Assembly: GCA_035544675.1 (NCBI GenBank)
Contig: DATKCA010000283.1
Location: 2,097 to 66,096, forward strand
Direction: 5' to 3'
From: Thermoanaerobaculia bacterium
GTDB taxonomy: Bacteria > Acidobacteriota > Thermoanaerobaculia > Gp7-AA8
Length of the DNA: 64,000 nucleotides
Shown: positions 38,684 through 60,871 of the stretch, in pieces
Numbering within the stretch: position 1 is the first letter of the stretch
Layout: every line of letters starts with the position of its first letter
The notes under the pieces: model-generated
What the model was told of the DNA's origin: nothing
Database searches by the model: none
The model's input: only the letters and a program-made list of their open reading frames with translations
Position numbers and translations under genes: made by a program

Positions 38684-38687
38684 GGAC

Positions 38688-38714
38688 TTGGCGCTCCCGC
38701 CGCCAGACTGCTAA
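38688..38714 (+). promoter_or_regulatory. degenerate CIRCE-like element TTGGCGCTC-N9-GACTGCTAA in hrcA 5'UTR
   Basis: Consensus TTAGCACTC-N9-GAGTGCTAA. Halves match 7/9 and 8/9 with exact 9-nt spacer, positioned between -10 and start codon as in canonical HrcA-regulated operons. Confidence 0.45.
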
Positions 38715-38725
38715 CGACTGACCGA

Positions 38726-40419: not shown

Positions 40420-40456
40420 CGGAACAAACAGAACGCCCAGCTGTTAGCCAAGCCCA

Positions 40457-42292: not shown

Positions 42293-42314
42293 TGGCCTGT
42301 AACGGAGAAAGTCC

Positions 42315-45330: not shown

Positions 45331-46488
45331 ATGCAGGTCGTCCTCCAAGGGAACCTCACGAAATTCCCGCTCTCGCAGTTGCTCACGCTGTTGAGTGAGC
45401 ATTCGCACAGCGGCACGCTCGACATCGAGTCTGGTGCGAGCCGTGCGCGCGTTTTCATCGACGGCGGAAAGGTGATCTTCGCCGAGTCGAGCGATGGCAC
45501 GGCGGGCAATGCCGGTGAGGCTGTCGTCCGCACGTTCGAGTGGCCGGACGCGCAGTTCACGTTCCTTGACGGCATGTCGCTCCCGGACAAGGCCACGCGC
45601 GTGACGCTCGACGTGGAGTCGATCGTCGCGGAGGCGGCCAAGCGCGCCGAGGGAGGGTATGCCGACTACGCGATGTTCCGGGTGATCGACAATCCCGCCG
45701 CGCAGGAGAAGATCACGATCGCGCCGGAGGAATTCACGCTGCTCTTCAAGATCGGCATGGGAAAGACGTTCGGCGACCTGGTGAGCGAGCCGGGCGCGAC
45801 CCGCCGCGCCACCGGCGCGAAGCTGAAGATTCTCGAGAAAGCCGGTCTCGTGCTGCGCGTCGACCAGGCTGCACCGAGCATGATACCCGGCGCGTCGCAG
45901 AACACCGCCGAGACCCCGCGGCCGAAGGGCCGTGAAGAGCGGCGTCCACGCGCCCAAGCGCCCGCCGAGGGAGTCGAGAAAACGGTCTTCGCCCCGAAAG
46001 TGGATATGGCGGACGCGACGCAGTTCACACCGCCTCCCCCTCCCCCTCGCCAGCCCACTGACGAGATCCCGGCTCCCCTGGCCACCGAGAAGACGCAGGC
46101 CGGCGAGGTTCCCGTGCCGCCCGTGGCATCCGCGCCTCCCCCTCCGATCCTCGGCGACCCGAAGAACCTGTTCGGATCGCTCACGCCCGACAGCGGCGAT
46201 ACCTGGCCGCTGGTCGACAACGAGTACACGATCGGCCGCGACGACACGAACAGCATCCCCGTGCCCGACGGCAGCATCTCGTCGAAACACGCCCGTCTCC
46301 TCAGGAATGAACAGGGCTTCTGGGTCGAAGACCTCGGAAGCCGCAACGGGACCTTCGTCAACGGCGAGAAGGTGACGGACAAGCGACTTCTGTCGAACGG
46401 CGACCTGGTCCGCTTCGGCAAAGTGATCATGACCTTCCATATGGCGCAGGACAGCAGCTCGGACCAGACCGTCGTCGAGTCGAAATAG
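45331..46488 (+). CDS. DUF4388 (PATAN) domain + C-terminal FHA domain protein
   Basis: N-terminus GNLTKFPLSQLLTLLSEHSHSGTL is the DUF4388 hallmark. Pro-rich linker. FHA motifs (TIGRDD..SSKHARL..GSRNGTFVNG). Confidence 0.75.
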   Translation: MQVVLQGNLTKFPLSQLLTLLSEHSHSGTLDIESGASRARVFIDGGKVIFAESSDGTAGNAGEAVVRTFEWPDAQFTFLDGMSLPDKATRVTLDVESIVAEAAKRAEGGYADYAMFRVIDNPAAQEKITIAPEEFTLLFKIGMGKTFGDLVSEPGATRRATGAKLKILEKAGLVLRVDQAAPSMIPGASQNTAETPRPKGREERRPRAQAPAEGVEKTVFAPKVDMADATQFTPPPPPPRQPTDEIPAPLATEKTQAGEVPVPPVASAPPPPILGDPKNLFGSLTPDSGDTWPLVDNEYTIGRDDTNSIPVPDGSISSKHARLLRNEQGFWVEDLGSRNGTFVNGEKVTDKRLLSNGDLVRFGKVIMTFHMAQDSSSDQTVVESK

Positions 46489-46511
46489 CGGCCAAACGTT
46501 CAAAAAAGACA

Positions 46512-48890
46512 ATGAAATTTGATCTAGTGATTGTCGGGTCCGGCCCGGCCGGTCTCGCCGCCGCGTCTCACGCTCACACCAACGGGATGAAGTACGTGCT
46601 GCTCGAGCGCGTCGATCACCTGTCGGACACGATCTATCAATATCAGGCTCGCAAGTACGTCATGGCCGAGCCGATGATGATCCCGGCGCGCGGCGACGTC
46701 CCGTTCGAGGCGGGATCGCGCGAGTCCATCCTCGAAGCCTGGGACAGGCACGCCGCGGACCGCCAGGTGAACATCGAGCTGAAGGCCGAGGTGAACTCGG
46801 TCGAGAAGACCGCGGACGGATTCGTCGTCGCCACGAAGGCCGGCAACAAGTACGAGACCGCGGCCGTGGTACTGGGGATGGGTACGCAGGGGAACCCGAG
46901 AAAACTCGGCGTGACCGGCGAGGATTTGCCTAACATCCGCTACCGCCTGAACGACGCGAAGGAACACCAGGAGCAGGACATCCTCGTGGTCGGCGCGGGC
47001 GACTCCGCGCTGGAGATCGCGGCCGCCCTCTCGGATGAGAACCGAGTCGGCCTGGTCGTGCGCGGCGCGGAGATCACGCGCGCGAACGAGGTGCTGACGC
47101 GCGACGCGCTGTCGCGGCAGGCCAGCGGCCGCATGACCATCTACTTCAACACGACGGTGAAGGAAGTCGGCGAGGGCTACGTCGATCTCAACGTGCGCGG
47201 GGACACCACGCGCATCCCCAATGAGCTGATCTTCCTCAAGCTGGGCGCCGACGCGCCGCGCAAGTTCCTCGAGAAAATCGGGATCAAGTACAGCGGACCG
47301 GGTGCCGACGCCCGGGCCATGCTGAGCCCGGTGCACGAGACGACCGTGCCGAAGCTGTTCCTCATCGGCGCGGCGAGCGGCCGCGACCTCATCAAGCTCG
47401 GCATGAACCAGGGCTATGAAGTCGTCGAGCACCTGATGGGCCGCGAGGTCGAGCCGGCCGACGAAGCAGTGCTCAGGGAGCGGCTGCCGTTCTGGGAAGG
47501 CACGGTCCGCGAGCGCATCGCCGCGATTCGGTCCCGCGCGCCGCTGCTCGCCGCCGCGGACGAACAGCAGCTCCGCGACACGTTCCTGTCCGCTCGCGTT
47601 CGCGAGTACAAGAACGGCGAGATCATCATCCGTCAGAACGACTACACCAACGACTTCCTCATCGTGGCCTCGGGGCGCGTCGAGCTCTATCGCCGGCCCG
47701 AAAAAACAAACGCCGACGTGAAAGTCGCCGAGATCACCGCCGGCAACTTCTTCGGCGAGATGAGCCTCATCTCCGGACGCCGCCGTACGGCCACGGCCAA
47801 GGCCATGGGGAACACGCGCGTGATCGAGATCCCGCGCAAGGCCATGCTGCGTCTTCTGGCGTCCTCGCCGAAGGCGAAAGCGCTCATGGACCAGGCCTTC
47901 CTGCTCCGCGCGTTCGGCGGCTACCTCTTCCCCGGCATCGCCGAGGGGGCGCTCGGCGAGCTGGTCGAGAAGGCCGTCGTCGAGAACATCGGCAAAGACG
48001 CGGTGGTGTTCAAGGAAGGCGATGCAGCGGAAGCGTTCTACCTGATCCGCAGCGGCATGATGAAGATCGCCAAGCAGTCGGGCGACAAGGAAGTCGTGCT
48101 CTCGTACCTGGTGGCCGGCAACTTCTTCGGCGAGGCCGCGCTCTTCTCCGATGCCGAGCGCACCGCTACCGTCAGCGCGATCTTCCCGGCCGAGCTGGTG
48201 AAGCTCTCCAAGAAAGACTTCGACAACTTCCTGGGCATCCGTCCCGAGCTGCGCGAGCTCCCGCTGCGCAAGCTCGAGGAGCGCCGCATCGCCGGCCTCA
48301 TCGCCGAGGCCACGCCGGGATCCGGCAACATCCTCTCCGACCTCATCCGCGAGGAAGTGGTCATGGGAACGCAGACCCTGGTCATCGACGAGCACCGCTG
48401 CGTGCGATGCGGGAACTGCGTCCGCTCCTGCGAGGGCGTGCACGACGACGGTCAGGCCCGCATCTCCCTCACCGGCATCAAGTTCTACAACCTCCTGGCG
48501 CCGAACTCGTGCTGGCAGTGCGAGAACCCGATGTGCATGCTGGACTGCCCGCCCGACGCCATCTCCCGCGATCCGCGCGGCGAGGTCTACATCAAGAGCA
48601 ACTGCATCGGCTGCGGCAACTGCGAGCGCAACTGCCCCTACGGCAACATCTTCATGGTCCACAAAGAGCCGAAGAAGTCGATCACCGGCTGGATCAAATC
48701 GATCTTCGGAAAAGGCAAGCACGAGGACGCGATCGAGCAGACCTTCGCCGTCAAGTGCGATCTCTGCCGTGGTATCTCCGGCGGCCCCGCATGTGTCCGC
48801 GGCTGTCCGACCGGAGCGGCAATCCGACTGACACCGGAGCAGTATCGGGAGACCCTGGAAGAGCTGGTCATTTCGCGAGGGGAGAGGTAG
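46512..48890 (+). CDS. fusion protein: thioredoxin-reductase-type FNR-like flavoprotein + 2x cyclic-nucleotide-binding domains + 4x [4Fe-4S] ferredoxin motifs
   Basis: Two Rossmann GxGxxG (VIVGSGPAGLAAA; LVVGAGDSALEIAAAL) without the TrxR CxxC. Two CAP_ED signatures (FFGEMSL..RRTATAKA; FFGEAAL..ERTATVSA). Four CxxCxxCxxxCP-like motifs (CVRCGNCVRSCE, CWQCENPMCMLDCP, CIGCGNCERNCP, CDLC...CVRGCP). Confidence 0.8.
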   Translation: MKFDLVIVGSGPAGLAAASHAHTNGMKYVLLERVDHLSDTIYQYQARKYVMAEPMMIPARGDVPFEAGSRESILEAWDRHAADRQVNIELKAEVNSVEKTADGFVVATKAGNKYETAAVVLGMGTQGNPRKLGVTGEDLPNIRYRLNDAKEHQEQDILVVGAGDSALEIAAALSDENRVGLVVRGAEITRANEVLTRDALSRQASGRMTIYFNTTVKEVGEGYVDLNVRGDTTRIPNELIFLKLGADAPRKFLEKIGIKYSGPGADARAMLSPVHETTVPKLFLIGAASGRDLIKLGMNQGYEVVEHLMGREVEPADEAVLRERLPFWEGTVRERIAAIRSRAPLLAAADEQQLRDTFLSARVREYKNGEIIIRQNDYTNDFLIVASGRVELYRRPEKTNADVKVAEITAGNFFGEMSLISGRRRTATAKAMGNTRVIEIPRKAMLRLLASSPKAKALMDQAFLLRAFGGYLFPGIAEGALGELVEKAVVENIGKDAVVFKEGDAAEAFYLIRSGMMKIAKQSGDKEVVLSYLVAGNFFGEAALFSDAERTATVSAIFPAELVKLSKKDFDNFLGIRPELRELPLRKLEERRIAGLIAEATPGSGNILSDLIREEVVMGTQTLVIDEHRCVRCGNCVRSCEGVHDDGQARISLTGIKFYNLLAPNSCWQCENPMCMLDCPPDAISRDPRGEVYIKSNCIGCGNCERNCPYGNIFMVHKEPKKSITGWIKSIFGKGKHEDAIEQTFAVKCDLCRGISGGPACVRGCPTGAAIRLTPEQYRETLEELVISRGER

Positions 48891-48918
48891 GAGAAGGGCG
48901 CCCCGAGCCCAAAGAACG

Positions 48919-49749
48919 ATGGCAGTCCCACGATCCGGACCCACTTGGCGTCGCATTTTCGCCGTGCTGCTTTTTGCCGTGGCGGTCTCGTACGCGTACT
49001 ACGCGCGCGATGAGTTTCCGCACGGCGGGACGAAGATCGGTCTGACCCTCGGCATCATCGGGCTGCTGCTCATTCTCCTGCTCGCGTACTTCGGGATCCG
49101 GAAGCGCTCCTACCGCTCCACCTTCGGCACGCTCGAACAGTGGATGCAGTCCCACATCTACCTCGGCATCCTCGTGTTCGTGATCCTGCTGCTGCACACC
49201 GGCGGAAGGTTCAACGACCAGATCGCCGTGACGACGTTCATCCTCGTCGGAGCGGTGGTCCTCTCCGGGATTCTGGGAGCGATCCTCTATGTGACGGTCC
49301 CCCGGATGCTGACCGAGGTGGAGAGCAACCTCACCATCGAGGAGATCTCGGACAACGCCAACCAGCTGGCGCGGCAGATGGCGCGCACCGCCTCCGGCAA
49401 GTCGGCTCCGTTCCAGCGCATCTACGATGAGCTGATCTACGAGACGCGCCCGGGGTGGCTGGCCGGCTGGCGCCTGGTCATCTACAGCGCTCGAAAGAAG
49501 GGGCAGACCTCGTCGGACTGGGCGAATCTGCTGCGGCTCGTGCCGAAAGAGGAGCAGGACGAGCTCCGGTCCCTTCTGGTGACCTCGCGTCAGCGGAAGG
49601 AGCTGCTGCTTCGCCTGATGTATCAGCAGCGCTACAAGAACATCCTCGAGGCGTGGCTCTACATCCATGTTCCGTTCACGATCGCGTTGCTCGTCTTCTC
49701 GGCTCTGCACGTCGCGGCCGTTTTCTATTACGGGAGCGTGAGGTGGTGA
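48919..49749 (+). CDS. integral membrane protein, putative dihaem cytochrome b (ferric-reductase-like, two H-x13-H pairs)
   Basis: 5 predicted TM helices. TM3 SHIYLGILVFVILLLH and TM5 IHVPFTIALLVFSALH each carry two His spaced exactly 13 residues apart, as in bis-His haem b ligation of FRD/NOX/MsrQ-type proteins. Confidence 0.5.
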   Translation: MAVPRSGPTWRRIFAVLLFAVAVSYAYYARDEFPHGGTKIGLTLGIIGLLLILLLAYFGIRKRSYRSTFGTLEQWMQSHIYLGILVFVILLLHTGGRFNDQIAVTTFILVGAVVLSGILGAILYVTVPRMLTEVESNLTIEEISDNANQLARQMARTASGKSAPFQRIYDELIYETRPGWLAGWRLVIYSARKKGQTSSDWANLLRLVPKEEQDELRSLLVTSRQRKELLLRLMYQQRYKNILEAWLYIHVPFTIALLVFSALHVAAVFYYGSVRW

Positions 49750-49753
49750 GCGC

Positions 49754-52087
49754 ATGAGTTACGTCATCCAGCTCGTCCAGGGCCGGGCCCTCAAGCTCAC
49801 GCAGGTTCGTGCTGACGTGCTCCGCATCGGACGCGGAACCAATGCCGACGTCCGCTCGGACAATCCTGCCGTCGCGTTCGAGCACGCCATCATCGAGAAG
49901 GATTCCGGCGGGTACTACACGATCATCGACAAGGGCAGCATCACCGGCACCTACGTCAACCGCAAGCCCGTGGAGCAGCAGCGCCTCGGCAAGGGCGACG
50001 TCATCGAGGTCGGTGACCTGCGCATCGAAGTTCAGGTTGCGGACACCACCAAGCCGCTCTTTCTCCGCCAGCTCTCTTCGCGCCGGCAGGCCGCGGCGCC
50101 CGGATATGCAGACGTTGGCGAGGACACCGGTTCCGGGTATCAGGCTGAAGCAGGAACCGGCACGATCGCAGCCGAGAAGGTCGACTACGTCGATGCCTAC
50201 GCGCTGCGGCGTCCCTGGCTGCACAAGTCGACCGTCGCATCGATCCTCCTGATCATCGCCCTGGGCGTGGTCGGCGAGGTCACGCAGGAGGACAAGCAGA
50301 GCGTGTTCATGCCCGGCGGCGTCTCGTCGGCGCACTCGCGCGCCCGCGACGCCCAGGGCAATAGCATCGCCGAGCGATGCGCCGCCTGTCACACTCCGTG
50401 GAAGAGCATCACCGACGACAAGTGCGCACAGTGCCACGCCATGGCGCCGCATGCCACGCACGAGCTGAAGGCGCCGGCATGCTTCACCTGCCACTCCGAG
50501 CATCGCGGGCTGGCCAGGCTGGCGGCCATTCCCGACGTGCGCTGCAACGAGTGCCACAAGGACCTCAGCAAGCACGTCAAGACGAGCCCGGACGAGCTGG
50601 CCAAGCTGCGTTTCGCGGATGGCCGTTACAGCTTCGCGGAGATCCAGAAGATCAACGCATTCGGCGACGTGCATCCCGAGTTCGTCTTCCCGGCCGATAC
50701 GAACACGCTCAAGTTCAACCACAAGCTGCACCTCGCCCCGAACGGCGTCTTCAACGCCACGGGGCGGCGCGAAGTCCTGGCCTGTAACGACTGCCATAAC
50801 CTGGTGGACGTCCGCGGCAAGGTCGATCCGGTCCAGCTCCAGTTCGATACTCACTGCCAGCGTTGCCACAAACTGACGTTCGACCCGCGCTTCCCGCGGG
50901 CCGAGGCGCCGCACGGTGGCGATCCGGGGCTGGTGTACGGATTCGTTCTGGCCACGTACGCGGGGAACACCGAGCTGGCGGGCAAGTCCGCCGTCGAGGT
51001 GCGGCGCCTCTTGTCCCAGCGGCAGGTGGTGGCACCCGATCAGCGCGCGCTGCTCAATGCCGAGCAGGTCATCAAGACCAAATGCGACAAGTGCCATGAC
51101 CTGGAACGGCGCGGCCCCAACAATCAGCTTGCCGCCGTGCCGCCGAAGATCCCCACCACGTGGTTCGCCGCCTCCGACTTCGAGCACGGCGCCCACAAGC
51201 AGATCAGCTGCGAGCAGTGCCACGACAAGGTCCGCCAGAGCGTCCCCACCAGCGACGTGCACATGCCGACGCGCGAGGACTGCACGGAATGCCACGGGAC
51301 GAAGGCCGCGCCCGGTGTCAAGCAGACATCGAGTGCATGCGTGGCCTGTCACGACTATCATTTGCGGACTGATCAGACCAAACCGATAGTATTGGCAGCG
51401 GGACTCGCGGGCACGGCAGGGCCGGCGGGCGCACTGCTCGATCCCGCCAGCGGAGGGCGAATGCTTCAGACCATTCTCATCGCAGCAATCATTGTCCTGC
51501 TCTTCGTGGTCTTCATCCCGCTCGGCGCCGCGCTTTATCAGCGTCTGAAACCGTCGCGCACGGCCACTCCGCGAGGAGCCGCTCCGGCCAAGGGACCCAC
51601 GGTGAAGGTACCGCCGATGTCCGCTCCGCCCATGCAGGCCCCTTCGGCTCCGGCCGAGCCGCCGCAGCGCGCATCCGCTCCCCGTCCGCCGGCCGAGGCC
51701 GCGCCCACACAGATGCTCAATCTCGACGCCATCAAGCCTCCGGCCTCGGGCCCCGTAGCGGGCGGTGCGACGGAGATGCTGCAGTGGTACGGAATGCTCC
51801 GATGCACTTCCGGCCCGCTGGACGGGCAGAATTTCATCATCGAGGAGGACGGCTTCTACATCGGCCGCGATTCGACGATGTCGAAAGTCGTGATCAACGA
51901 CGGGCGCGTGTCGAAGAGGCACGTGAAGATCCAGCCGCGAAACGGGAAGGTGTTCGCCATCGATGAAGGATCGACGAACGGCACGTTCCTCACCGCGGGC
52001 GGGCAGCGCATCACCGAACACCAGCTCAAGCGCGGGGACACTCTGATTCTGGCCGACAACGCTGCCACATTCGTGTATCAGATCTGA
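49754..52087 (+). CDS. inner-membrane protein: N-terminal FHA - TM - periplasmic decahaem cytochrome c domain (10x CxxCH) - TM - Pro-rich linker - C-terminal FHA
   Basis: FHA1 in aa 1-95 (IGRGTNADV..FEHAII..ITGTYVN). TM helices at aa 161-176 and 570-596 with positive-inside flanks. CxxCH at aa 209, 224, 243, 264, 344, 368, 444, 486, 510 and 529. FHA2 in aa 676-777 (YIGRD..SKRHVKI..GSTNGTFL). Confidence 0.8.
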   Translation: MSYVIQLVQGRALKLTQVRADVLRIGRGTNADVRSDNPAVAFEHAIIEKDSGGYYTIIDKGSITGTYVNRKPVEQQRLGKGDVIEVGDLRIEVQVADTTKPLFLRQLSSRRQAAAPGYADVGEDTGSGYQAEAGTGTIAAEKVDYVDAYALRRPWLHKSTVASILLIIALGVVGEVTQEDKQSVFMPGGVSSAHSRARDAQGNSIAERCAACHTPWKSITDDKCAQCHAMAPHATHELKAPACFTCHSEHRGLARLAAIPDVRCNECHKDLSKHVKTSPDELAKLRFADGRYSFAEIQKINAFGDVHPEFVFPADTNTLKFNHKLHLAPNGVFNATGRREVLACNDCHNLVDVRGKVDPVQLQFDTHCQRCHKLTFDPRFPRAEAPHGGDPGLVYGFVLATYAGNTELAGKSAVEVRRLLSQRQVVAPDQRALLNAEQVIKTKCDKCHDLERRGPNNQLAAVPPKIPTTWFAASDFEHGAHKQISCEQCHDKVRQSVPTSDVHMPTREDCTECHGTKAAPGVKQTSSACVACHDYHLRTDQTKPIVLAAGLAGTAGPAGALLDPASGGRMLQTILIAAIIVLLFVVFIPLGAALYQRLKPSRTATPRGAAPAKGPTVKVPPMSAPPMQAPSAPAEPPQRASAPRPPAEAAPTQMLNLDAIKPPASGPVAGGATEMLQWYGMLRCTSGPLDGQNFIIEEDGFYIGRDSTMSKVVINDGRVSKRHVKIQPRNGKVFAIDEGSTNGTFLTAGGQRITEHQLKRGDTLILADNAATFVYQI

Positions 52088-52096
52088 GGGATATCG

Positions 52097-53806
52097 ATGC
52101 GTGCATTCTTGACTACTTCTGCGGCGATCCTTCTTGCCTCCCTGGCCGGCGCTCAGGTGCCGAACCCCGAACCGGAATCGTGCAGCGCGCCCCTGAGCGC
52201 GGTGGCCCGCTGTTCGGAGGCCGAGGGTGGAGGAGAGGAGTTCGACTCGCTCAACCCGGCCGAGATCGACGCCATCGTGAAGGCCGCGGCGAGCGCAACC
52301 AACCGCACCGACCTCACCATCGCCGTGGTCGACCGGGCCGGCCGTCCGCTGGCTCTCTTCCGCCAGCCCAACGCCGATCCCGAGAACGACGACAAGGCCG
52401 TGGGCGTGGCCAGGACCACGGCGTTCTTCAGCCACAACCAGGCCCCGCTGTCCTCGCGCACCGTCCGGTTCATCAGCGCGATCCATTTTCCCACCGGGGT
52501 CACCAACACCAACAGCGCGGCGCTGTATGGCATCGACAACACCAACCGCGGCTGCGACTTCAACGTCGTGTTCAACGAAGGCAAGTGCACGCCCCGCGCG
52601 CGCAGCCTCAACGGACGCCCCTGCAATGCCTTCGACACGAGCGGGTGCGGACAGGGAATCGTCACCGGCAAGATCTTCCCGGGTGACGAGATCCAGCAGT
52701 CGGTGAACGCGGGCGGCATCCCGCTGTTCCGCATCCTGAATCTGACCGAGGCCGACCAGGGTCGCGTCTCCGAAGGAAAGATGATCGGCGGCATCGGCGT
52801 CGTCGGCATCTCCGAGGATCCCAGAGAGGAAGATCCGCAGATCACCGAATACGCCGCGGCGACGGGGGCGTTCGGCGCTCTCAACGCCGGCGTCGGGGCC
52901 ATCGTCCCCGTGCCCCAGTTTCCCCTGCCGAAGCCGGGTAACGTCTTCATCGACGGCATCCGCCTCCCCTTCCTCGGCCGCGACATCACGCTGCGGTTCA
53001 ACGAGGACGGTCTGCCGACTGGCGTGCTGCTGGCGGGGATCCAGGCTGGCACCGATGCCGGCGAATACGCGATCGCGCCGCGCAACGGCGGATGCGCCGC
53101 GAACGGCTACCTGGTCGGGCCTCTGGCCGGCTCGAGACTGACGGCCGCTGAAGTCGACGCGATCGTTCGCCGCGCCGACTCCGCCGCCAAGAGAACCCGC
53201 GCGGCGATCCGCCTCCCGCTCAATCGCTACGCGCGGATGGCCATCGCGGTGGCCGACCTGGACGGGACGCTCCTGGCCGTCTACCGGATGCCGGATGCGA
53301 CGATCTTCTCCACCGACGTATCTGTGGCCAAGGCGCGCAACGTCGTCCACTTCAGCACTTCGACCGATCTGGCGGGCGTGCCGGCGGGAACCGCGGTCAC
53401 CAACCGATCCATCGCGTTCGGCAGCCACCCCTTCTTCCCGCCGGGCATCGACGGGCGCAACTTCAAGCCCCGCCCCGGTCCCTTCTTCGAGTCGATCTTC
53501 GTGCGCGATCTCAACAATCCCTGCTCCCAGGGACTGCAGCCGGCCAACGCCAATCAGAGCGGCATCGTCTTCTTCGCCGGCTCGACGCCGCTGTTCCGCG
53601 GCAACGAGATGATCGGCGGCCTGGGAGTATCCGGCGACGGCATCGAGCAGGACGACTACGTGACGTTCCTCGGCGCGGGAGAGTTCCTGCCGCCCCGGGA
53701 GCGGTGGGCGGACCGCATCATCATTGATAAGGTCCGGCTGCCGCAGTACAAGTTCCCAAGACAACCGGAAGGCGTCACAGAATGTGGAGGTGGACCGTGC
53801 GACTGA
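52097..53806 (+). CDS. secreted protein with two GlcG/HbpS-like (DUF336, haem-/cofactor-binding) domains
   Basis: Signal peptide. Two segments resembling the DUF336 core (IDAIVKAAASAT..DLTIAVVDRAGRPLALFR..AVGVARTTAFF and VDAIVRRADSAAKRT..RMAIAVADLDGTLLAVYRM..SVAKARNVVHF). Confidence 0.6.
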   Translation: MRAFLTTSAAILLASLAGAQVPNPEPESCSAPLSAVARCSEAEGGGEEFDSLNPAEIDAIVKAAASATNRTDLTIAVVDRAGRPLALFRQPNADPENDDKAVGVARTTAFFSHNQAPLSSRTVRFISAIHFPTGVTNTNSAALYGIDNTNRGCDFNVVFNEGKCTPRARSLNGRPCNAFDTSGCGQGIVTGKIFPGDEIQQSVNAGGIPLFRILNLTEADQGRVSEGKMIGGIGVVGISEDPREEDPQITEYAAATGAFGALNAGVGAIVPVPQFPLPKPGNVFIDGIRLPFLGRDITLRFNEDGLPTGVLLAGIQAGTDAGEYAIAPRNGGCAANGYLVGPLAGSRLTAAEVDAIVRRADSAAKRTRAAIRLPLNRYARMAIAVADLDGTLLAVYRMPDATIFSTDVSVAKARNVVHFSTSTDLAGVPAGTAVTNRSIAFGSHPFFPPGIDGRNFKPRPGPFFESIFVRDLNNPCSQGLQPANANQSGIVFFAGSTPLFRGNEMIGGLGVSGDGIEQDDYVTFLGAGEFLPPRERWADRIIIDKVRLPQYKFPRQPEGVTECGGGPCD

Positions 53807-55797
53807 GAGTCTCCCTCGTCGCCCTCCTCCTCCTTCTCACAGCCCTCACCATCAGCGCCCAGGTCACGATCAATCGTGACCGCGCCGTCTTCACCGGCGA
53901 AGTCCCCTTCACGCTCTGGGGCACCGCTCCGCCGAACTCGGTCGTGACGATCACGGTCGACTCTCCGGGCCTGCAGCCGGTGACGACGGCGGCGGGTCCG
54001 GACGGCTCGTGGAGCGTGCTCTGGACGCAGCCGCTGCGGACCGGCGTGTACGGGATTACCGTGACGGCGGGCGGCGCGACGTCGACGCAGGACCTGCGCG
54101 TGCAACTGGAAGGCAACGTGGCCCGGCAGCCCCAGATCGTCGAAGAGCCGCGTTTCGCCATCCCGCGCGTTTACGACATGGATGAGAACACGGAGCTGAC
54201 GGACCGGTGGCGGATCGTGCCGCCTCCGTACGAGCTCGACGAGCCGCCGCGGGGGCGGAAGATCGGCGACCGTGGCGCGACGCTCGATCCGTACAACAAG
54301 AACCTGCTCAAAGGCGATTACCCCATCCGCGGCAAGGACACGTTCCTCGTGCTGACGGGAATCTCCGACACCACCATCGAGTCGCGGTCTCTGCCGACGC
54401 CTTCCGGTCCCAGCGCCGCCCGGGTGGACAGCTTCACGTTCTTCGGCGACAACGATCAGGGCATGGTGATCCAGAACCTGATCCTCACGGCCGATCTCTA
54501 TCAGGGGCTGACCACGTTCCAGCCGGTACGGCAGCGCTTCAGAGTCACGGCAATCGGGAACTATACCCACCTGAACGTCGCCGAGAACTCGGTGGTGAAG
54601 CCGGACGTGCGGCGTGGCACCGAGCGAAACGACGGCCGCCTTTCGGTGCAGGAGTTCTTCTACGAGCGCAAGCTCGCCGACCTCAGCCCTTACTTCGACT
54701 TCGTGTCGGTCCGGGCCGGCTCGCAGCAGTTCTCCAGCGACTTCCGCGGCTTCGTCTTCTCGGACACGAACCTGGGCGTGCGCCTCTTCGGCAACTACGG
54801 CTCGAACCGCTATCAGTACAACCTGGCCGCCTTCGAGCGGCTGGAGAAGGACACGAACAGCGGCCTGAATCGAAACTTCGTTTTCCGCGAACAGCAGGTG
54901 GGCGTGGCCAACGTCTACATCCAGGACTTCATCCGGAAGGGGTACACGCAGAGCTTCTCGATCACTCATCAGCGGGACCGGCCGGGCGAAAAGCTGCACT
55001 TCGATCGCAACGGGATCCTGGTACGTCCCGCTCCGATCGGCTCGTTCACCCCGCACGACATCGACGCGACGTACGTCGGCCAGGCCGGGTTCGGACACTT
55101 CGGCCGGCTGAATGTGGATCACGCGCTGTACTACGTGTTTGGCAAAGACAGCCACAATCCGATCGCCGGGCCCGATCCGGAGCTGCGGCGAGGCGACGAG
55201 ATCGACATCAGCGCGGGGATGGCGGCGGTCGAGCTGTCGTACGACCGCGACTGGCTCCGGCCGCGCTTCGCGTTGTTCTACGCGTCCGGCGACAGCAAGC
55301 CGCGCGACCGTACGGGCACCGGCTTCGACTCGATCTTCGACGGTCCCGCCTTTGCCGGCGGCGGCTTCAGCTTCTTCAACCGCCTGGGCATCCGTCTGTC
55401 GCAGACCGGCGTCGCGCTCGTGGATCGCGGCAGCCTCATCACCTCGCTGCGCAGCAGCAAGGACGAGGGGCAGTCGAACTTCGTCAACCCGGGCGTGCAG
55501 CTCGTCAGCCTGGGGCTGGACATCGAGGTCACGCTGCGGCTCAAGGCCATCCTGACCGCGAACTACATCAGGATGGACAGCACGGCTGCGGTCGAGGAGC
55601 TTCTGTTCCAGGGGGACATCGACAACGAGCTGGGCGCTGATCTGAGCGTCGGCCTGCGGTACCGGCCGTTCTTCACTCAGCAGTGGATCGTGGTGGGCGG
55701 CATCGCCGGATTCATTCCGGGACGGGGCTTCAAAGACATTTACGAGAGCGACAACCCGCTCTATCACGTGTTCTCCAACATCATTTTGCAGTTCTGA
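53782..55797 (+). CDS. putative outer-membrane beta-barrel protein (~670 aa) with N-terminal Ig-like domain
   Basis: Signal peptide (LVALLLLLTALTISA-QV). Alternating beta-strand pattern over ~500 aa. C-terminal ...NIILQF (terminal Phe, OMP sorting signature). Size comparable to MtrB/PioB-class porins. Confidence 0.5.
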   Translation: MWRWTVRLRVSLVALLLLLTALTISAQVTINRDRAVFTGEVPFTLWGTAPPNSVVTITVDSPGLQPVTTAAGPDGSWSVLWTQPLRTGVYGITVTAGGATSTQDLRVQLEGNVARQPQIVEEPRFAIPRVYDMDENTELTDRWRIVPPPYELDEPPRGRKIGDRGATLDPYNKNLLKGDYPIRGKDTFLVLTGISDTTIESRSLPTPSGPSAARVDSFTFFGDNDQGMVIQNLILTADLYQGLTTFQPVRQRFRVTAIGNYTHLNVAENSVVKPDVRRGTERNDGRLSVQEFFYERKLADLSPYFDFVSVRAGSQQFSSDFRGFVFSDTNLGVRLFGNYGSNRYQYNLAAFERLEKDTNSGLNRNFVFREQQVGVANVYIQDFIRKGYTQSFSITHQRDRPGEKLHFDRNGILVRPAPIGSFTPHDIDATYVGQAGFGHFGRLNVDHALYYVFGKDSHNPIAGPDPELRRGDEIDISAGMAAVELSYDRDWLRPRFALFYASGDSKPRDRTGTGFDSIFDGPAFAGGGFSFFNRLGIRLSQTGVALVDRGSLITSLRSSKDEGQSNFVNPGVQLVSLGLDIEVTLRLKAILTANYIRMDSTAAVEELLFQGDIDNELGADLSVGLRYRPFFTQQWIVVGGIAGFIPGRGFKDIYESDNPLYHVFSNIILQF

Positions 55798-55811
55798 GGG
55801 ACGAGGCTTAG

Positions 55812-58800
55812 ATGAAGAAGACGTTCTTCGTAGTGCTCATTGCGGCGGCGGTTGCGGCGACGTTGTTTGCCGCCACTCAGCAGGGTGAGCCCGTCCGCGC
55901 GCCTCAGACCTCGCCGCTCATGGGCCAAACCCAGGCCCAGGCGGACGAGAAGAGCAGCGGCTGTCTTTCGTGTCATGAAGGCATCGAGCCGATGCACGCA
56001 TCCGCGGCGGTGAAGCTCGGATGCACGGACTGCCACGGCGGGAACGCGGGGGTCATGGCCAGTCGCATCGACGACGAGGACGCCAAGAACCGCGCCCACA
56101 TCCTGCCCCGGAACAAGGAGATCTGGAAGACGTCCAGGAATCCCGTGGGAACGTACACGGCCCTGCTGAAGGAGTCTGCCGAGTTCGTGAAGTTCATGAA
56201 CCCGGGCGATCTGCGCGTGTCGAAGGAAACGTGCGGCGATTGCCATCCGCAGCAGGTGGCGGCCGTGCCGCGAAGCACGATGTCCACCGCCGCCGTCTTC
56301 TGGGCGGCCGTCTCCTATGCGAACGGCCTGATCAGCAAGAAGCCCGGCCTGCTCGGCGAGAGTTACAACCGGGAAGGGAATCCACAGATCCTCCGCCCGG
56401 CCGTGCCGCCCACGCCCGAACAGATTGCCAAAGGCGCGCTGCCGCTCGTCGTCCCTCTGCCTCGTTGGGAGATCTTCCAGCCAGGGGAGTACTTCCGCGC
56501 GTTCGAGCGAGGCGGTCTCCTGAACAACACCATTCCGCCGGAAGTCGGCAATCCGAATCCGCTGCTGGGCGACGAAGCAGGGAAGCCGGACATCCGCGTC
56601 AGCAACCGCGGCCGCGGCACGGGAAGCCGTGTCTCGCCGGGCCTGATCAACCTGCAGAAGACCCGTCTCAACGATCCGCACCTCTCATTCCTCGGGACCA
56701 ATGAGCATCCCGGCGACTATCGCTCCAGCGGCTGCACGGCATGCCACGTGGTGTACGCGAACGACCGTGATCCGCTTCACTCCGGACAGTGGGCGAAGTA
56801 CGGGCACGTCGGCCTGTCGCAGACCGGCGACAAGACGATCCCGAAAGACGAGAAGGGTCATCCCATCAAGCATCAGTTCACGCGCGCCGTGCCGACGTCT
56901 CAGTGCATGAGCTGTCACATGCACCAGCCGAACTCGTTCGTGAACACGTACCTCGGCTACCTGATGTGGGACTACGAGAGCGACGGCGAGCTGATGTGGC
57001 CGAAGGAGCAGAAGTACCCGACTCCCGACGAGCGCCGGAAGAGCCTCGATCACAACCCGGAGGGCGCCGCGGTCCGCGGACTCTGGACGGACATCGACTT
57101 CCTGGAGCGCGTCAGCAGCCTGAACCCGCAGGCCAAGAACACGCAGTTCGCCGACTACCACGGCCACGGCTGGAACTTCATGGCCGTGTTCAAGCGCGAC
57201 AAGAAGGGCAACTTCCTCGACGCCAACGACACGATCGTGTCGAAGGACGACCCCGAGAAGTTCAAGAAGGCCGTGCACCTGCGTGACATCCATCTCGAGC
57301 GCGGCATGCACTGCTCCGACTGCCACTTCTCGCGGGACGAGCACGGCGACGGCCAGTTGTACAGCGAGTACGGAACGAACATCGAGATCGAGTGCCAGGA
57401 CTGCCACGGGCGGCTCGATCGCAACACCAACCTGCGGACCTCCGGGCCGCTCGCGCCGCCGGGAGGAACGGACCTCCGTCTGGGGACCACGCCGTTCGGC
57501 CAGCGTCGCTTCATCTGGTCCAACGGGATCCTCTATCAGCGCTCGATGGTGAACCCGGGCATGGAGTGGGTGGTGCGCCAGGTCAGGGACACCGTCACGC
57601 GGGGTCACCAGCACTACAACGACAAGTCGCATTACGCGAAGACGGTGCAGCGCGGCGGCGCCGGGTGGGGCAACACCAGCAACGTCGCTCACAGCGAAGA
57701 CAAGATCACGTGTTACGCCTGCCACTCCTCGTGGATGACGTCGTGCTTCGGCTGCCATCTCCCGCAGGAGCAGAATGCCAGGTCGAACGCCCTGCACTAC
57801 GAAGGGACGGAGACGCGCAACTACGCCTCTTACAACCCCCAGGTTCTCCGCACGGATGTGTTCATGCTCGGCGTGAACAGCCCGCTCAAGGGAGCCAAGA
57901 TCGCTCCGGTGCGCTCATCGAGCGCCCTGACGCTCAGCTCGATCAACCCGAACCGGCAGCGCATCTACATCCAGCAGGCTCCGATCTCCGCGCCGGGCTA
58001 CAGCAGCCAGGCCTTCAACCCGCACGTTCCCCATACGGTGCGCAGCAAGGAGACGCAGGCCTGCAGCTCGTGCCACATCAGCGAGGCGAACGACAACAAT
58101 GCCTGGCTGGCCCAGACATATCTGCAGGGAACGAACTTCGTCAACTTCGTCGGCCGGTTCGCCTGGGTGGCCACGGGTGACGACGGGTTCGAAGCGATTG
58201 CGGTGACGGAGTGGGAGGAGCCGCAGGCGGTCATCGGGTCGTATCTGCACAAGCTGGCCTATCCCGACTGGTACGCGAACCATCAGAAGCGCAAGAAGGA
58301 GCTGGCCGAGGGATATCACCATCATGGCCACGCCAAGATGGTGCAGTTGCGGGGCGAGTATCTGTATGCCGCGAACGGCGACAGAGGCTTCGAGGCCTAC
58401 GACGTCGCCAACGTCGACAACAAGGACTTCTCCGAGCGCATGATCTCGGCGCCGTCGTCGCCGATCGGGCAGCGCACGTTCATCAAGTCGAAGTACGCCG
58501 CGGCGTTCTCGCTGCCGACGAACATGCCCATCGACCCGACGCGCGAGACGACATCGATCCCCGAGAACCAGGAACAGCCGTGGCATCCGCTGTACCGCTA
58601 TGCGTACATCGCCGACAAGTATGAGGGTCTCATCCTCGTCGACGTCACGACGCTGACCGACGGCGATCCTCTGAACAACTTCTTCACGCGCGCGCTGACG
58701 TGGAATCCGGAAGACCGGCTGCACGGCGCGCAGTCGATTCACGTGGCCGGGCGGTGGGTGTACATCGGCACGGAGAAGGGGCTGGCCATCGTCGACGTCG

Positions 58801-59543
58801 ATCAGCCCCTGGCTCCGAAGCTCGTGGCCTACATGCCCGAGATCAAGAAGGCCACCGGCATCGCGGTGCAGTTCCGGTATGCCTTCGTGACCGACGGCCA
58901 GGCCATTCACACAATCAACGTCACCGATCCGACACGGCCGCGTCTGACCGCGTCCCTCCCTCTGGAGGAAGCGCGCAATGTCTACGTGGCCCGGACCTAC
59001 GCATATGTGGCGGGTGGGAAACAGGGTGTGATCATCGTGGACATCGAGCGCCCGGAGGCGCCGAAGATCGATCAGATCTACAACGCCGACGGCGAGCTGC
59101 ACGACGTGTACGACGTCAAGGTGGCCTCTACGAATGCCAGCACGTATGCATACGTCGCCGACGGTGAGCACGGCATCAAAGTCCTGCAGCTCTCCTCACC
59201 GGAGTGGGGCCCGAACTACGCCGGCTTCAGTCCGCGGCCGATGCCGCAGCTGATCGCCAAGCGGCATACGCACGGCAAGGCCGTGTCCATCTCCAAGGGA
59301 ATGGACCGCGACCGCGCCGTCGATGAGAGCGGCAACCAGGTCTCGATCTTCAACCGCATCGGGTCACGGCCGATGACGACCCCGGAACTGCAGCGGCTGT
59401 ACATGCGCGACGGCCGCATCTACACGGTCAGCGATAGACCTTCCACGCGACCACAGGGAAGCACGACGGTCACTGAGAACCCTGCGACCAAGCCGCAGGT
59501 ACCAGTGGTCCAGAAACCTGCCACGAAGCCGGTGACGAGGTGA
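55812..59543 (+). CDS. secreted decahaem c-type cytochrome fused to LVIVD-repeat beta-propeller region
   Basis: Signal peptide. Ten CxxCH (CLSCH, CTDCH, CGDCH, CTACH, CMSCH, CSDCH, CQDCH, CYACH, CFGCH, CSSCH) in first ~780 aa. C-terminal 450 aa with LVIVD-like repeats (GLILVDV, GLAIVDVDQP, YAFVTDGQAIHTINV, YAYVAGGKQGVIIVDI, YAYVADGEHGIKVLQL). Confidence 0.8.
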   Translation: MKKTFFVVLIAAAVAATLFAATQQGEPVRAPQTSPLMGQTQAQADEKSSGCLSCHEGIEPMHASAAVKLGCTDCHGGNAGVMASRIDDEDAKNRAHILPRNKEIWKTSRNPVGTYTALLKESAEFVKFMNPGDLRVSKETCGDCHPQQVAAVPRSTMSTAAVFWAAVSYANGLISKKPGLLGESYNREGNPQILRPAVPPTPEQIAKGALPLVVPLPRWEIFQPGEYFRAFERGGLLNNTIPPEVGNPNPLLGDEAGKPDIRVSNRGRGTGSRVSPGLINLQKTRLNDPHLSFLGTNEHPGDYRSSGCTACHVVYANDRDPLHSGQWAKYGHVGLSQTGDKTIPKDEKGHPIKHQFTRAVPTSQCMSCHMHQPNSFVNTYLGYLMWDYESDGELMWPKEQKYPTPDERRKSLDHNPEGAAVRGLWTDIDFLERVSSLNPQAKNTQFADYHGHGWNFMAVFKRDKKGNFLDANDTIVSKDDPEKFKKAVHLRDIHLERGMHCSDCHFSRDEHGDGQLYSEYGTNIEIECQDCHGRLDRNTNLRTSGPLAPPGGTDLRLGTTPFGQRRFIWSNGILYQRSMVNPGMEWVVRQVRDTVTRGHQHYNDKSHYAKTVQRGGAGWGNTSNVAHSEDKITCYACHSSWMTSCFGCHLPQEQNARSNALHYEGTETRNYASYNPQVLRTDVFMLGVNSPLKGAKIAPVRSSSALTLSSINPNRQRIYIQQAPISAPGYSSQAFNPHVPHTVRSKETQACSSCHISEANDNNAWLAQTYLQGTNFVNFVGRFAWVATGDDGFEAIAVTEWEEPQAVIGSYLHKLAYPDWYANHQKRKKELAEGYHHHGHAKMVQLRGEYLYAANGDRGFEAYDVANVDNKDFSERMISAPSSPIGQRTFIKSKYAAAFSLPTNMPIDPTRETTSIPENQEQPWHPLYRYAYIADKYEGLILVDVTTLTDGDPLNNFFTRALTWNPEDRLHGAQSIHVAGRWVYIGTEKGLAIVDVDQPLAPKLVAYMPEIKKATGIAVQFRYAFVTDGQAIHTINVTDPTRPRLTASLPLEEARNVYVARTYAYVAGGKQGVIIVDIERPEAPKIDQIYNADGELHDVYDVKVASTNASTYAYVADGEHGIKVLQLSSPEWGPNYAGFSPRPMPQLIAKRHTHGKAVSISKGMDRDRAVDESGNQVSIFNRIGSRPMTTPELQRLYMRDGRIYTVSDRPSTRPQGSTTVTENPATKPQVPVVQKPATKPVTR

Positions 59544-60871
59544 TAGCGATGAAGAGACTCATTCCGGGTGCGGTCGTAGCTCTCCTGTTGATAGCTTCCG
59601 TGGCCGCTCAGCAGCCAGCCACCACTCCTCCGCCCGCGCCCACCGCCACTCCACCGGCAGGAACGGTCGGCAAGTACGTCGGCGTGGCCTCGTGTGTGAA
59701 CTCCGGCTGCCACGGCAGCACCGAGCCGCTCAACCAGACTCGGGCGCTTCAGAACGAGTACTACACGTGGTTGAACAACGACCGTCACGCGCAGGCGTAC
59801 AACGTCCTGTTCAACAACGTTTCGGCGCGCATCGCCAAGAACATGCGTCTTCGCAGAAGGGCGTATGAAGAGAAGATGTGCCTGGACTGCCATACCACCA
59901 ACGTTGCTGCCAGCCAGGTCGTCGGCAACATCGACCCCGAGGACGGCGTGCAGTGCGAGGCCTGTCACGGGCCGGCCAGCGGCTGGCGCGACGAGCACAC
60001 CCAGCTCGGATGGACGCACGCAGACTCGGTCCGGCGCGGTCTGAACGATCTCCGCGACGTCTCCCGCCGCGGCGAGCAGTGCCTCACCTGCCACCTCGGT
60101 AATGCCAGCAAGGAAGTCGACCACGACCTCATCGCGGCCGGGCATCCCATCCTGGCCTTCGAGCTCGACAACTACACCGAGTCGATGCCGCCGCATTGGA
60201 CCGCGGGCCGCGAGTCCCACGGACTCCGGGCCTGGGCCGTCGGACAGGTCGTGAAGTTCCGTGACTCCCTCGACAACGTGGCTCGACACGCCCGCGGCGA
60301 CAAGTGGCCGGAGTTCGCGGACATGAGCTGTTACAACTGCCATCACGGGCTGAAGGCCAGCACGTGGAGGCAGGAGCGCGGCTGGCCGGATCGTCCCGGC
60401 CTCCCGGCCTGGAGCCCGCAGCACTGGGCGGCCCTGCGCATCCTGATCGCGAGGATCTCGCCGCAGGTGCGCAACGAGCTGGACCCGGTCGTCCGCGACC
60501 TCTCCATCGCCGTGGCGCGGATGAACAACCGTGATGCCATCGTGACCAGCGCTCAGCGGGCCCGCCGCCTCGTCGAGCCGCTCGTGGCCAGGGCCGAGGC
60601 CATCTCCTGGAATGACGCCGACGTGCGCACGATGATGCGCGCCATCGCCGACGACCGCGAGTTCATCCTGGCCTCCGACGTTCACGCCGCCGAGCAGGCC
60701 GCGCTGTCCCTGCAGAGCCTTTCCACGACGCTGACCCGCCGCGACCGCAGGCTGCTGCGCTCGACCATGACCCGCGCCATCGACGCGCTCTTCGAAGAGC
60801 TGGAAAGCCGCGACGACTACGACCCGGCCAGGTTCGCGCAGAAGCTGCAGGCCGTCAGAGCAACGCTGTAA
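59540..60871 (+). CDS. secreted pentahaem c-type cytochrome (4x CxxCH + 1x CX4CH)
   Basis: Signal peptide + Pro/Thr linker. CVNSGCH (CX4CH), CLDCH, CEACH, CLTCH, CYNCH. Start overlaps upstream stop. Confidence 0.72.
   Translation: MIAMKRLIPGAVVALLLIASVAAQQPATTPPPAPTATPPAGTVGKYVGVASCVNSGCHGSTEPLNQTRALQNEYYTWLNNDRHAQAYNVLFNNVSARIAKNMRLRRRAYEEKMCLDCHTTNVAASQVVGNIDPEDGVQCEACHGPASGWRDEHTQLGWTHADSVRRGLNDLRDVSRRGEQCLTCHLGNASKEVDHDLIAAGHPILAFELDNYTESMPPHWTAGRESHGLRAWAVGQVVKFRDSLDNVARHARGDKWPEFADMSCYNCHHGLKASTWRQERGWPDRPGLPAWSPQHWAALRILIARISPQVRNELDPVVRDLSIAVARMNNRDAIVTSAQRARRLVEPLVARAEAISWNDADVRTMMRAIADDREFILASDVHAAEQAALSLQSLSTTLTRRDRRLLRSTMTRAIDALFEELESRDDYDPARFAQKLQAVRATL

Follow-up and report, generated by a model that had tools for sequence, protein, structure and literature searches.

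In a 64,000-nucleotide stretch of a metagenome-assembled contig from a Thermoanaerobaculia bacterium (DATKCA010000283.1, positions 2,097 to 66,096; the window), we find a gene, g4, that encodes a decahaem c-type cytochrome bracketed by two transmembrane (TM) helices and carrying a forkhead-associated (FHA) domain at each end. It is the fourth of eight co-linear plus-strand genes (g1 to g8; Table 1). On balance we incline, without great confidence, to the view that g4, anchored in the inner membrane, serves as the periplasmic haem wire of a Ptd-like complex that transfers electrons across the membrane independently of quinone; this complex would be fed by NAD(P)H and controlled through FHA and cyclic nucleotide monophosphate (cNMP)-binding domains. 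The first-pass annotation of the window concentrated on g4 itself; the context that it missed, a probable dihaem cytochrome b (g3) and an NAD(P)H, iron-sulfur (Fe-S) and cNMP-binding protein (g2) encoded just upstream, would explain most of the function.

The g4 open reading frame (ORF) begins with ATG and runs to 777 residues with zero internal stops, and its G+C content at third codon positions (GC3, 0.84) is like that of neighbouring genes. Residues 209 to 533 contain ten CxxCH motifs, accounting for 20 of the protein's 21 cysteines; from composition alone, 0.02 such motifs would be expected. The Pfam FHA model (PF00498) matches two stretches, at the N- and C-terminus (102 bits against a cutoff of 20.7), and between them lie matches to Cytochrome_C7 (45 bits against 24.8) and Cytochrom_CIII (29 against 22.9). 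The sequence of g4 is found unchanged (100% identity) in a deposited "FHA domain-containing protein" from a Thermoanaerobaculia metagenome-assembled genome (MAG), and more than 120 full-length homologues with 50–68% identity share its architecture, some of them in closed assemblies of 5–6.6 Mb. Because the source is a metagenome-assembled contig, one might suspect an assembly or annotation artefact, that is, a frameshift or a chimera of separate FHA and cytochrome genes, but we found nothing in favour of this and give it practically no credence: codon bias is continuous through the gene, and the identical full-length architecture recurs in these >120 independent proteins and at 79 loci, long-read closed chromosomes included. 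An antisense ORF of 1362 residues (49676-53764, minus strand) that runs across g4 and g5 is a high-GC artefact, failing a GC3/GC2 filter that the real genes pass.

The topology also stands as first annotated. In 23 homologues the mean number of lysines plus arginines falls from 3.4 before TM1 to 2.0 after it and rises from 0.8 before TM2 to 4.6 after it, so that both ends of the protein are predicted to be cytoplasmic and the haem loop periplasmic, and the AlphaFold2 (AF2) helices agree with this. Attachment of c haem occurs in the periplasm only. The AF2 model (23 sequences; predicted local distance difference test score, pLDDT, 57; predicted template modelling score 0.26) is credible in its FHA domains and TM helices, and its haem domain is unusable. 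Besides the ten CxxCH motifs, exactly ten further histidines (H194, 233, 250, 307, 323, 326, 387, 478, 481 and 536) are invariant both in 23 close homologues and in 25 sequences at ∼30% identity; this is the signature of ten bis-His electron-transfer haems rather than of a catalytic site, and covalent haem is predicted for each. Membership of the MtrA/DmsE family (TIGR03508, 23.7 bits against 192.2) and of the HmcA family (15 against 400) was rejected, no model of the NapC/NirT type matched g4, and sequence searches of the PDB returned no meaningful solved relative for the g4 haem domain, for g3 or for g6.

The g3 gene stops 4 nt ahead of the g4 start and encodes what is probably a dihaem cytochrome b. 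His79, His93, His250 and His264, which make up two Hx13H pairs, are invariant in 19 close homologues and in a set of 28 sequences, the most distant at 29% identity, from several phyla (Gammaproteobacteria, Binatia, Syntrophobacteraceae and others). A fifth histidine, in a loop, is not conserved. With the N-terminus inside, each pair would place one histidine toward the cytoplasmic side of the membrane and the other toward the periplasmic side. The recurrent Pfam matches within the set of 28 are to Ni_hydr_CYTB (prokaryotic cytochrome b561; 27 sequences), Ferric_reduct (21) and DUF4405 (21), and the best E-values of these homologue matches are 1e-6 (27 of 28) and 1.7e-5 (21 of 28). No quinone-site family matched g3. 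Since the AF2 model of g3 is weak and the fold search uninformative, the dihaem assignment rests on sequence. Thr132, which lies at the end of TM4 that faces the cytoplasm (P128-x-x-x-T132), shows little or no variation across phyla and may be a structural residue or a phosphorylation site.

Gaps within the cluster are 23, 28, 4, 9, −25, 14 and −4 nt, and a scan of the operon for internal promoters or terminators gave no signal above chance. A profile scan of GTDB species representatives (one genome per species) found 79 loci, all of them in uncultured Thermoanaerobaculia/Acidobacteriota except for a more distant one-FHA relative in a Syntrophobacteraceae MAG, and g4 is carried by ∼60 species-level Thermoanaerobaculia MAGs. 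In the 60 loci whose upstream sequence reaches far enough, g2 and g3 are never absent and g1 is found in 48; downstream, g6 and g7 occur in 47 of 47 loci, g5 in 45 and g8 in 44. Gene order and strand are constant across loci, and the flanking genes vary by genome. The protein encoded by g2 (792 residues, median identity 77% over its 60 loci) is TrxR/YpdA-like, lacks the redox CxxC and has no signal peptide. It carries the motifs GSGPAG and GAGDSA for FAD and NAD(P)H, two intact FGE..RTA cassettes in its cNMP-binding domains, and 16 cysteines in four groups resembling those of HydN/DmsB-type four-cluster ferredoxins. At one locus (L002:6557-8938, MAG contig_10975, 5.08 Mb, long-read) the g2 homologue is called as fragments of 85, 234 and 275 residues with an antisense ORF between them, reflecting either a pseudogene or homopolymer frameshift errors.

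These genes are best compared with ptdABCDEFG of marine bacteria, whose products are a pentahaem cytochrome (PtdA), a porin (PtdB), an FAD/NAD(P) oxidoreductase (PtdC), a periplasmic tetrahaem cytochrome (PtdD), a cNMP/4Fe-4S protein (PtdE), a ferric-reductase-like TM protein (PtdF) and a periplasmic decahaem cytochrome (PtdG) (2024 preprint, bioRxiv 10.1101/2023.11.21.568154). Both systems combine flavin and NAD(P) with cNMP-binding and Fe-S modules, followed by a small b-type TM protein and then a decahaem cytochrome. Possible counterparts of the Ptd porin and pentahaem cytochrome are encoded nearby, namely g6 with its barrel-like features and g8 with four CxxCH motifs and one Cx4CH. The PtdE-PtdF-PtdG order has its counterpart in g2-g3-g4, adjacent and co-oriented in 60 of 60 loci, and an FHA-less g4 homologue from Planctomycetota sits in the exact E-F-G arrangement. 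The differences are that PtdC-like and PtdE-like parts are here fused in g2, that the decahaem protein has two FHA domains and a second TM helix (no FHA domain is mentioned for Ptd), that no tetrahaem PtdD gene lies within 45331-60871, that genes for PatA_N-FHA, HbpS-like and LVIVD-decahaem proteins are added, and that the hosts are soil Acidobacteriota rather than marine bacteria. The module matches ptd in composition and local E-F-G order, not exactly, the comparison being with the published description of Ptd.

Downstream of g4, g5 encodes a secreted protein with HbpS-like domains, and a metagenome protein in ENA (P0495, 773 residues) in which the decahaem domain is naturally fused to an HbpS-like (PF03928) domain of the g5 family suggests that g4 and g5 interact. 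The g6 product is probably an outer-membrane barrel, to judge from its sequence: 59 of 61 orthologues end in phenylalanine, and β-type alternation is found in 35 windows as compared with 12.9±6.5 in shuffled sequences (∼3-fold); g6 has neither a Pfam nor a PDB match. Its listed start overlaps the end of g5 by 25 nt (53782-53806), and the true start may be farther downstream. The secreted decahaem protein g7 resembles ExtM of the Geobacter selenite/tellurite-reduction operon (E 2.6e-26), and this likeness, although sub-threshold (92 bits, cutoff 800), gives a hint of what the terminal chemistry might be. The flanks of the operon are ordinary housekeeping genes: a hrcA-grpE-dnaK-dnaJ heat-shock cluster with prmA lies directly upstream (38555-43430), and farther out (including 20661-22466) there are genes for a PAS-GGDEF-EAL protein, a branched-chain amino-acid ABC transporter and a Rieske ring-hydroxylating oxygenase.

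Table 1. Positions of the g1–g8 genes in the window and of the segments of the g4 protein.
Feature	g4 residues	Window position	Strand	Basis
g1, PatA_N (DUF4388) + canonical FHA, cytoplasmic		45331..46488	+	Pfam
g2, cytoplasmic flavoprotein, two cNMP-binding domains, four [4Fe-4S]-type Cys clusters		46512..48890	+	Pfam, NCBIfam
g3, 276-residue 5-TM protein, probable dihaem cytochrome b		48919..49749	+	H79x13H93 (TM3), H250x13H264 (TM5)
g4, FHA1-TM1-decahaem-TM2-linker-FHA2		49754..52087	+	Pfam FHA (two), Cytochrome_C7, Cytochrom_CIII
FHA1, cytoplasmic, non-canonical	1-105	49754..50068	+	GarA alignment, 120 homologues; AF2 pLDDT 73-88
TM1, predicted signal-anchor helix, N-in	~158-177	50225..50284	+	hydropathy; AF2 helix 158-176; flanking K+R
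Periplasmic decahaem c domain (predicted)	~185-540	50306..51373	+	ten CxxCH, ten invariant distal His
TM2, predicted to return the chain to the cytoplasm	~570-596	51461..51541	+	hydropathy peak 3.1; AF2 helix 568-598; flanking K+R
Pro-rich disordered cytoplasmic linker	597-672	51542..51769	+	pLDDT <50; motif T652-[R/K/Q]-[M/I/V/L]
FHA2, cytoplasmic, canonical	673-777	51770..52084	+	R705, S720-K-R-H723, S740-T-N-G-T744 essentially invariant
g5, secreted, two HbpS-like (GlcG/DUF336) domains		52097..53806	+	Pfam; signal peptide
g6, 671 residues, probable outer-membrane β-barrel		53782..55797	+	signal peptide; zero Cys
g7, 1243 residues, secreted decahaem + C-terminal LVIVD β-propeller		55812..59543	+	ten CxxCH; signal peptide; Pfam LVIVD
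g8, 443 residues, secreted c554-like pentahaem		59540..60871	+	4 CxxCH + 1 Cx4CH

In the mechanism that we propose, NAD(P)H would be oxidised at the flavin of cytoplasmic g2, whose four [4Fe-4S] clusters would pass the electrons on to g3; the b haems of g3, ligated at the inner face by H79/H250 and at the outer face by H93/H264, would carry them across the membrane, and the ten c haems of g4 would take them into the periplasm toward g5, g7, g8 and the g6 barrel. Net flow would then be outward, the system serving as an electron sink that regenerates NAD(P)+. What the data show is the architecture, the topology, the conservation of cofactor ligands, the synteny and the spread of the family; the filling of the cofactor sites, the contacts between subunits, the direction of flow, the ligands of the FHA domains and the final acceptor are deduced from these. 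Outward flow is most likely on the grounds of established bioenergetics rather than of data on this system: typical bis-His c haems are far less reducing than NAD(P)H, and the inside-negative membrane potential would drive electrons out. That the job of the cytoplasmic partner is the oxidation of NAD(P)H is suggested by an FHA-less relative (L088:4269-10257, JGI metagenome contig Ga0334791_0000137), in which the TrxR-like position upstream of g3-g4 holds instead a NuoE/NuoF-like NADH dehydrogenase (2Fe-2S_thioredx, Complex1_51K and NADH_4Fe-4S) as well as a Fer2/Fer4/cNMP-binding protein. The same locus encodes, not far away, an NDH2-like protein that has a cNMP domain. Because such a route would dissipate both reducing power and membrane potential, heavy gating is to be expected; the two cNMP-binding domains of g2 would provide one control and the cytoplasmic ends of g4 another.

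The first-pass annotation held that the FHA domains at both ends of g4 are canonical, and this is true of the C-terminal one only. In the alignment with GarA, FHA1 reads VAFEH...GSITGT and FHA2 reads VSKRH...GSTNGT; FHA1 has Ala and Phe at the GarA Ser and Arg (VSRRH) and Thr at the GarA Asn (SLNG). The serine that serves as a phosphothreonine (pThr) ligand is replaced by Ala41 in 116 of 120 homologues and the asparagine by Thr64 in all 120, with further replacements of Arg/Asn by Phe/Leu42 and of Thr by Ile63, and Gly-Arg27 and His44 are kept. As aligned, FHA1 is without three of the four usual phosphate ligands, and it is probably not a pThr reader of the standard kind. Across the one-FHA family the N-terminal domain is likewise degenerate (Asn in 3 of 85 members, Ser in 29 of 85), and the low-complexity linker joining it to the membrane varies from ∼50 to ∼480 residues, a variability that fits a tethered binding module. 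With its phosphate ligands lost and so variable a linker, FHA1 would act as a phospho-independent, tethered docking domain, for which g2 or the cytoplasmic insert of g3 are candidate partners. In some Thermoanaerobaculia, one-FHA paralogues (L080:10001-13141, L074, L078 and L082) have 200–480 residues rich in Ala, Pro and Glu, with REAAA-type repeats, between FHA1 and the TM helix, and a Cx4CH motif (CTTSGCH) in place of one CxxCH.

In FHA2, by contrast with FHA1, the whole pThr-binding set (R705, S720, K721, R722, H723, S740, T741, N742, G743 and T744) is retained in 119–120 of 120 homologues, and the FHA domain of g1 retains it too. FHA2 is nearer in sequence to the g1 domain (33%, E 2e-10) than to FHA1 (27%), whose best matches among solved structures are GarA and Rv1747. 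The g1 gene accompanies FHA2-bearing g4 in 39 of 43 loci, as compared with 3 of 14 others (Fisher p ∼2e-6, kinship ignored). Judged by this closeness and this co-occurrence, FHA2, TM2 and g1 look like a single regulatory layer gained jointly in Thermoanaerobaculia; FHA2 would be a canonical pThr reader that ties assembly, clustering or activity of the complex to a Ser/Thr kinase encoded elsewhere. Within the linker that precedes it, P620 and T652 are the only residues conserved at ≥90% (T652, codon 51707-51709, in 118 of 120). Rv1747, an ABC transporter of Mycobacterium tuberculosis, has a phosphorylatable linker between two FHA domains. On this precedent and that of GarA, and because it is conserved in a hypervariable tail, T652 is a candidate phospho-acceptor for FHA2 or g1. 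A fuller version of our reading, in which the module is a kinase- and cyclic-nucleotide-gated "electron valve" exporting NAD(P)H electrons independently of quinone across both membranes, with pT652, read by FHA2 and/or g1, switching assembly or clustering of the conduit, is possible but doubtful.

It could also be that the FHA domains serve a trans-envelope machine purely as structural scaffolds, like the cytoplasmic domain of SctD/YscD in the type III secretion system (T3SS) or the gliding proteins GltG/GltJ, and take no part in phospho-regulation. The Pfam Yop-YscD_cpl model matches g4 above its cutoff (67 bits against 33), NCBIfam returns GltG, GltJ, TagH and SctD, FHA1 has no pThr ligands and kinases are rarely nearby. 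The full-length T3SS model for SctD/YscD (TIGR02500) scores 14 bits against 86 on g4, so that the match is confined to the model of the FHA-like cytoplasmic domain. We nevertheless regard pure scaffolding as improbable, since a complete pThr-binding set in both FHA2 and g1 is hard to explain without phosphate binding, and a conserved Thr motif stands within an otherwise hypervariable linker.

Several points weigh against our preferred reading of g4 as a regulated, outward-conducting wire. The structure models are poor for both g4 (pLDDT 57) and g3 (pLDDT 63), and the fold search with g3 gave generic helix bundles only. All Pfam matches of g3 and its homologues fall below the curated cutoffs (with g3 of the window, 17.8 bits against 28 and 15.9 against 30.1 for the Ni_hydr_CYTB/Ferric_reduct models). 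An extracellular end-point is tentative because g7, which has no lipobox, and g8 carry no lipoprotein signal, because the g6 barrel is inferred only, and because the g7 propeller could equally be a periplasmic enzyme. The association between g1 and FHA2 is not corrected for phylogeny. A search of the 64-kb window for kinases and phosphatases found none, and a Hanks kinase lies nearby in only 4 of 89 related loci, so a dedicated kinase in the cluster was dropped from the proposal. The ptd authors themselves call the function of their system "completely unknown" (bioRxiv 10.1101/2023.11.21.568154). In addition, the authors of a study of Ferrigenium straubiae propose that NHC, a cytochrome related to g4 in architecture, links Fe(II) oxidases to the inner membrane (bioRxiv 10.64898/2026.01.22.701106), and in a Chromatiales locus g3 and g4 occur without a g2-like donor; each of these two points leads to an alternative.

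According to the first of these, electrons would enter rather than leave: the decahaem domain would take them from periplasmic or outer-membrane oxidases (for example, in Fe(II) oxidation) and hand them through g3 to the Fe-S and flavin centres or to quinone. Besides the Ferrigenium proposal, the family is present in Fe(II)-oxidising Gallionellaceae (PMC9900912), ptd genes are found in nitrite oxidisers (bioRxiv 10.1101/2023.11.21.568154), and the relative in Binatia adjoins a caa3 oxidase operon. However, by established bioenergetics the reduction of NAD(P)+ from haem-c potentials would be uphill and inward electrons would oppose the membrane potential, g3 shows no quinone-site family match and g4 no NapC/NirT-type module, and on the cytoplasmic side two independent versions of the partner are both of NAD(P)H-dehydrogenase type. 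We therefore judge inward uptake unlikely.

The second alternative has the b/c pair acting as a redox sensor and not as a conduit, reporting the redox state of the periplasm or the exterior by a change in FHA engagement of phospho-proteins when the haems are reduced; this is the redox-to-phosphosignalling coupling put forward in the first-pass annotation. The Chromatiales locus (L085:4685-13334, MAG JAGRGI010000061.1) invites such a reading, because its one-FHA decahaem and g3-like pair is encoded without a g2-like donor or outer-membrane partners, amid two PP2C phosphatases, a Hanks Ser/Thr kinase and an FHA-adenylate/guanylate cyclase; cNMP domains recur in the module, and two TM helices bracketing a haem domain could plausibly transmit a conformational change. 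Yet 12 haems, four Fe-S clusters, a flavin and two further co-inherited multihaem cytochromes with a probable barrel (44–47 of 47 loci) far exceed what a sensor needs, most family members have one FHA domain or none and a single TM helix, so that FHA signalling cannot be the core function, and the NADH dehydrogenase that stands in for the flavoprotein at L088 suggests bulk electron input. We regard this alternative, too, as unlikely, to about the same degree as inward uptake and pure scaffolding. The suggestion of the first-pass annotation that the cytochrome is wired to phospho-signalling is still reasonable in view of the intact FHA2, the co-occurrence of g1 and this Chromatiales context, but the search of the window for kinases and phosphatases lends it no support.

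The wider family was delimited by an exhaustive search with the haem domain alone as query, which returned 2491 cluster representatives, 189 of them below 1e-30. Among the best 150 of these, 85 have the FHA-TM-decahaem architecture, ∼50 (some of them fragments) are TM-decahaem proteins without FHA, and 9 complete proteins and 3 fragments have the two-FHA, two-TM form. Named members, all with generic annotation, come from MAGs of Chromatiales, Nevskia, Ca. Binatia and Acidobacteriota, and FHA-less members from Bryobacteraceae and Phycisphaerales. The constant core of the family is the g3-g4 pair. Nevskia (Gammaproteobacteria) has the whole module with a one-FHA cytochrome; in Phycisphaerales (Planctomycetota) a cNMP/Fe-S gene is followed by a g3-like gene and an FHA-less decahaem gene, with LVIVD-haem and c554-like genes nearby; and in Binatia it is g3-like, decahaem and HbpS-like genes that stand beside the oxidase operon. 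The Tenderiales uet cluster, considered as a literature lead for the combination of LVIVD and multihaem proteins, proved unrelated.

An FHA domain on a multihaem cytochrome is not unprecedented. The nonahaem NHC of Ferrigenium has a cytosolic FHA domain, a TM helix and a periplasmic multihaem domain, is encoded beside 5-TM and [4Fe-4S] proteins, and was presented by its authors as the first report of FHA domains with multihaem cytochromes (bioRxiv 10.64898/2026.01.22.701106); a pangenome table of the Gallionellaceae has the entry "Forkhead-associated protein, 10 CXXCH" (PMC9900912). NHC corresponds to the one-FHA form, which with 85 of 150 representatives is the commonest in the family here, and its nine CxxCH motifs, as opposed to ten, are probably explained by a Cx4CH variant of the sort seen in some relatives. 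It differs from g4 in having one FHA domain and one TM helix where g4 has two of each, with g1 in addition. In its 5-TM partner the authors saw no redox motif, whereas g3 has two invariant Hx13H pairs.

Other known systems share parts of this design. Hmc, Tmc and DsrMKJOP of sulfate reducers consist of a periplasmic multihaem cytochrome c, a membrane cytochrome b and a cytoplasmic Fe-S protein, and thus likewise set c haems outside, b haems in the membrane and Fe-S clusters inside; however, their membrane subunit is of another type, they have no counterpart of the flavin/NAD(P)H entry, the cNMP domains or the FHA domains, and the NCBIfam similarities are faint (HmcA, 15 bits against 400; DsrO, 42 against 200). 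In the NADPH oxidase/ferric-reductase-domain (NOX/FRD) superfamily, too, electrons pass from NAD(P)H by way of a flavin to a stacked pair of b haems, whose His ligands are paired at a 13-residue spacing in TM3 and TM5; the N-terminus is inside, export is electrogenic, and Ferric_reduct matches, weak ones, occur in 21 of 28 g3 homologues. Here, in contrast, a separate TrxR-like dehydrogenase and four interposed Fe-S clusters would feed g3, which has 5 rather than 6 TM helices and falls below the Pfam cutoff (17.8 against 28), and the acceptor would be a decahaem cytochrome c instead of O2 or an Fe(III) chelate. Rv1747, GarA/OdhI, SctD/YscD and GltG/GltJ are like g4 in placing a cytoplasmic FHA domain on a membrane or trans-envelope machine, and g4 also has a disordered linker with a conserved Thr in it; unlike g4, none is a redox protein, and in g4 the FHA domains are at opposite ends of a chain that crosses the membrane twice, one of them without phosphate ligands. 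With MtrCAB, PioAB and Geobacter Pcc/Ext the cluster shares a probable outer-membrane barrel beside multihaem proteins and the sub-threshold likeness of g7 to ExtM, but the DmsE/MtrA model reaches only 24 of the 192 bits required, lipoprotein signals are absent from g7 and g8, and no quinol dehydrogenase of the CymA, ImcH or CbcL type provides the entry at the inner membrane.

The claim of the first-pass annotation that the architecture of g4 had not been described needs to be narrowed accordingly, since the FHA-TM-multihaem arrangement is known from Ferrigenium and Gallionellaceae and the module is like ptd. We found no description of a sandwich with two FHA domains and two TM helices, of one degenerate FHA domain combined with a canonical one, of a PatA_N-FHA gene associated with them, of Hx13H pairs in the TM partner or of alternative NADH-dehydrogenase donors; the connection to a kinase is indirect. 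The Hx13H pairs are a concrete and checkable feature of g3 that earlier preprints, the Ferrigenium NHC study among them, had missed.

Multihaem cytochromes are usually seen as passive wires fed from the quinone pool. In this large, cross-phylum family (2491 haem-domain representatives), the combination of a decahaem cytochrome, a dihaem cytochrome b and an NAD(P)H-dehydrogenase/Fe-S protein suggests instead a transmembrane route that bypasses quinone, and three kinds of signalling domain (cNMP-binding, degenerate FHA and canonical FHA) are set upon it, raising testable questions about how electron export is switched and whether Ser/Thr kinases control respiration-like pathways. If the electron valve proved true, it would be the first respiratory-type multihaem conduit under direct Ser/Thr phospho-signalling and would give abundant uncultured soil Acidobacteria a regulated means of dumping reducing power on extracellular acceptors. 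The carriers are widespread uncultured Thermoanaerobaculia of soil and permafrost, and a regulated extracellular electron sink in these organisms would bear on the part that they are taken to play in iron, humic and carbon cycling.

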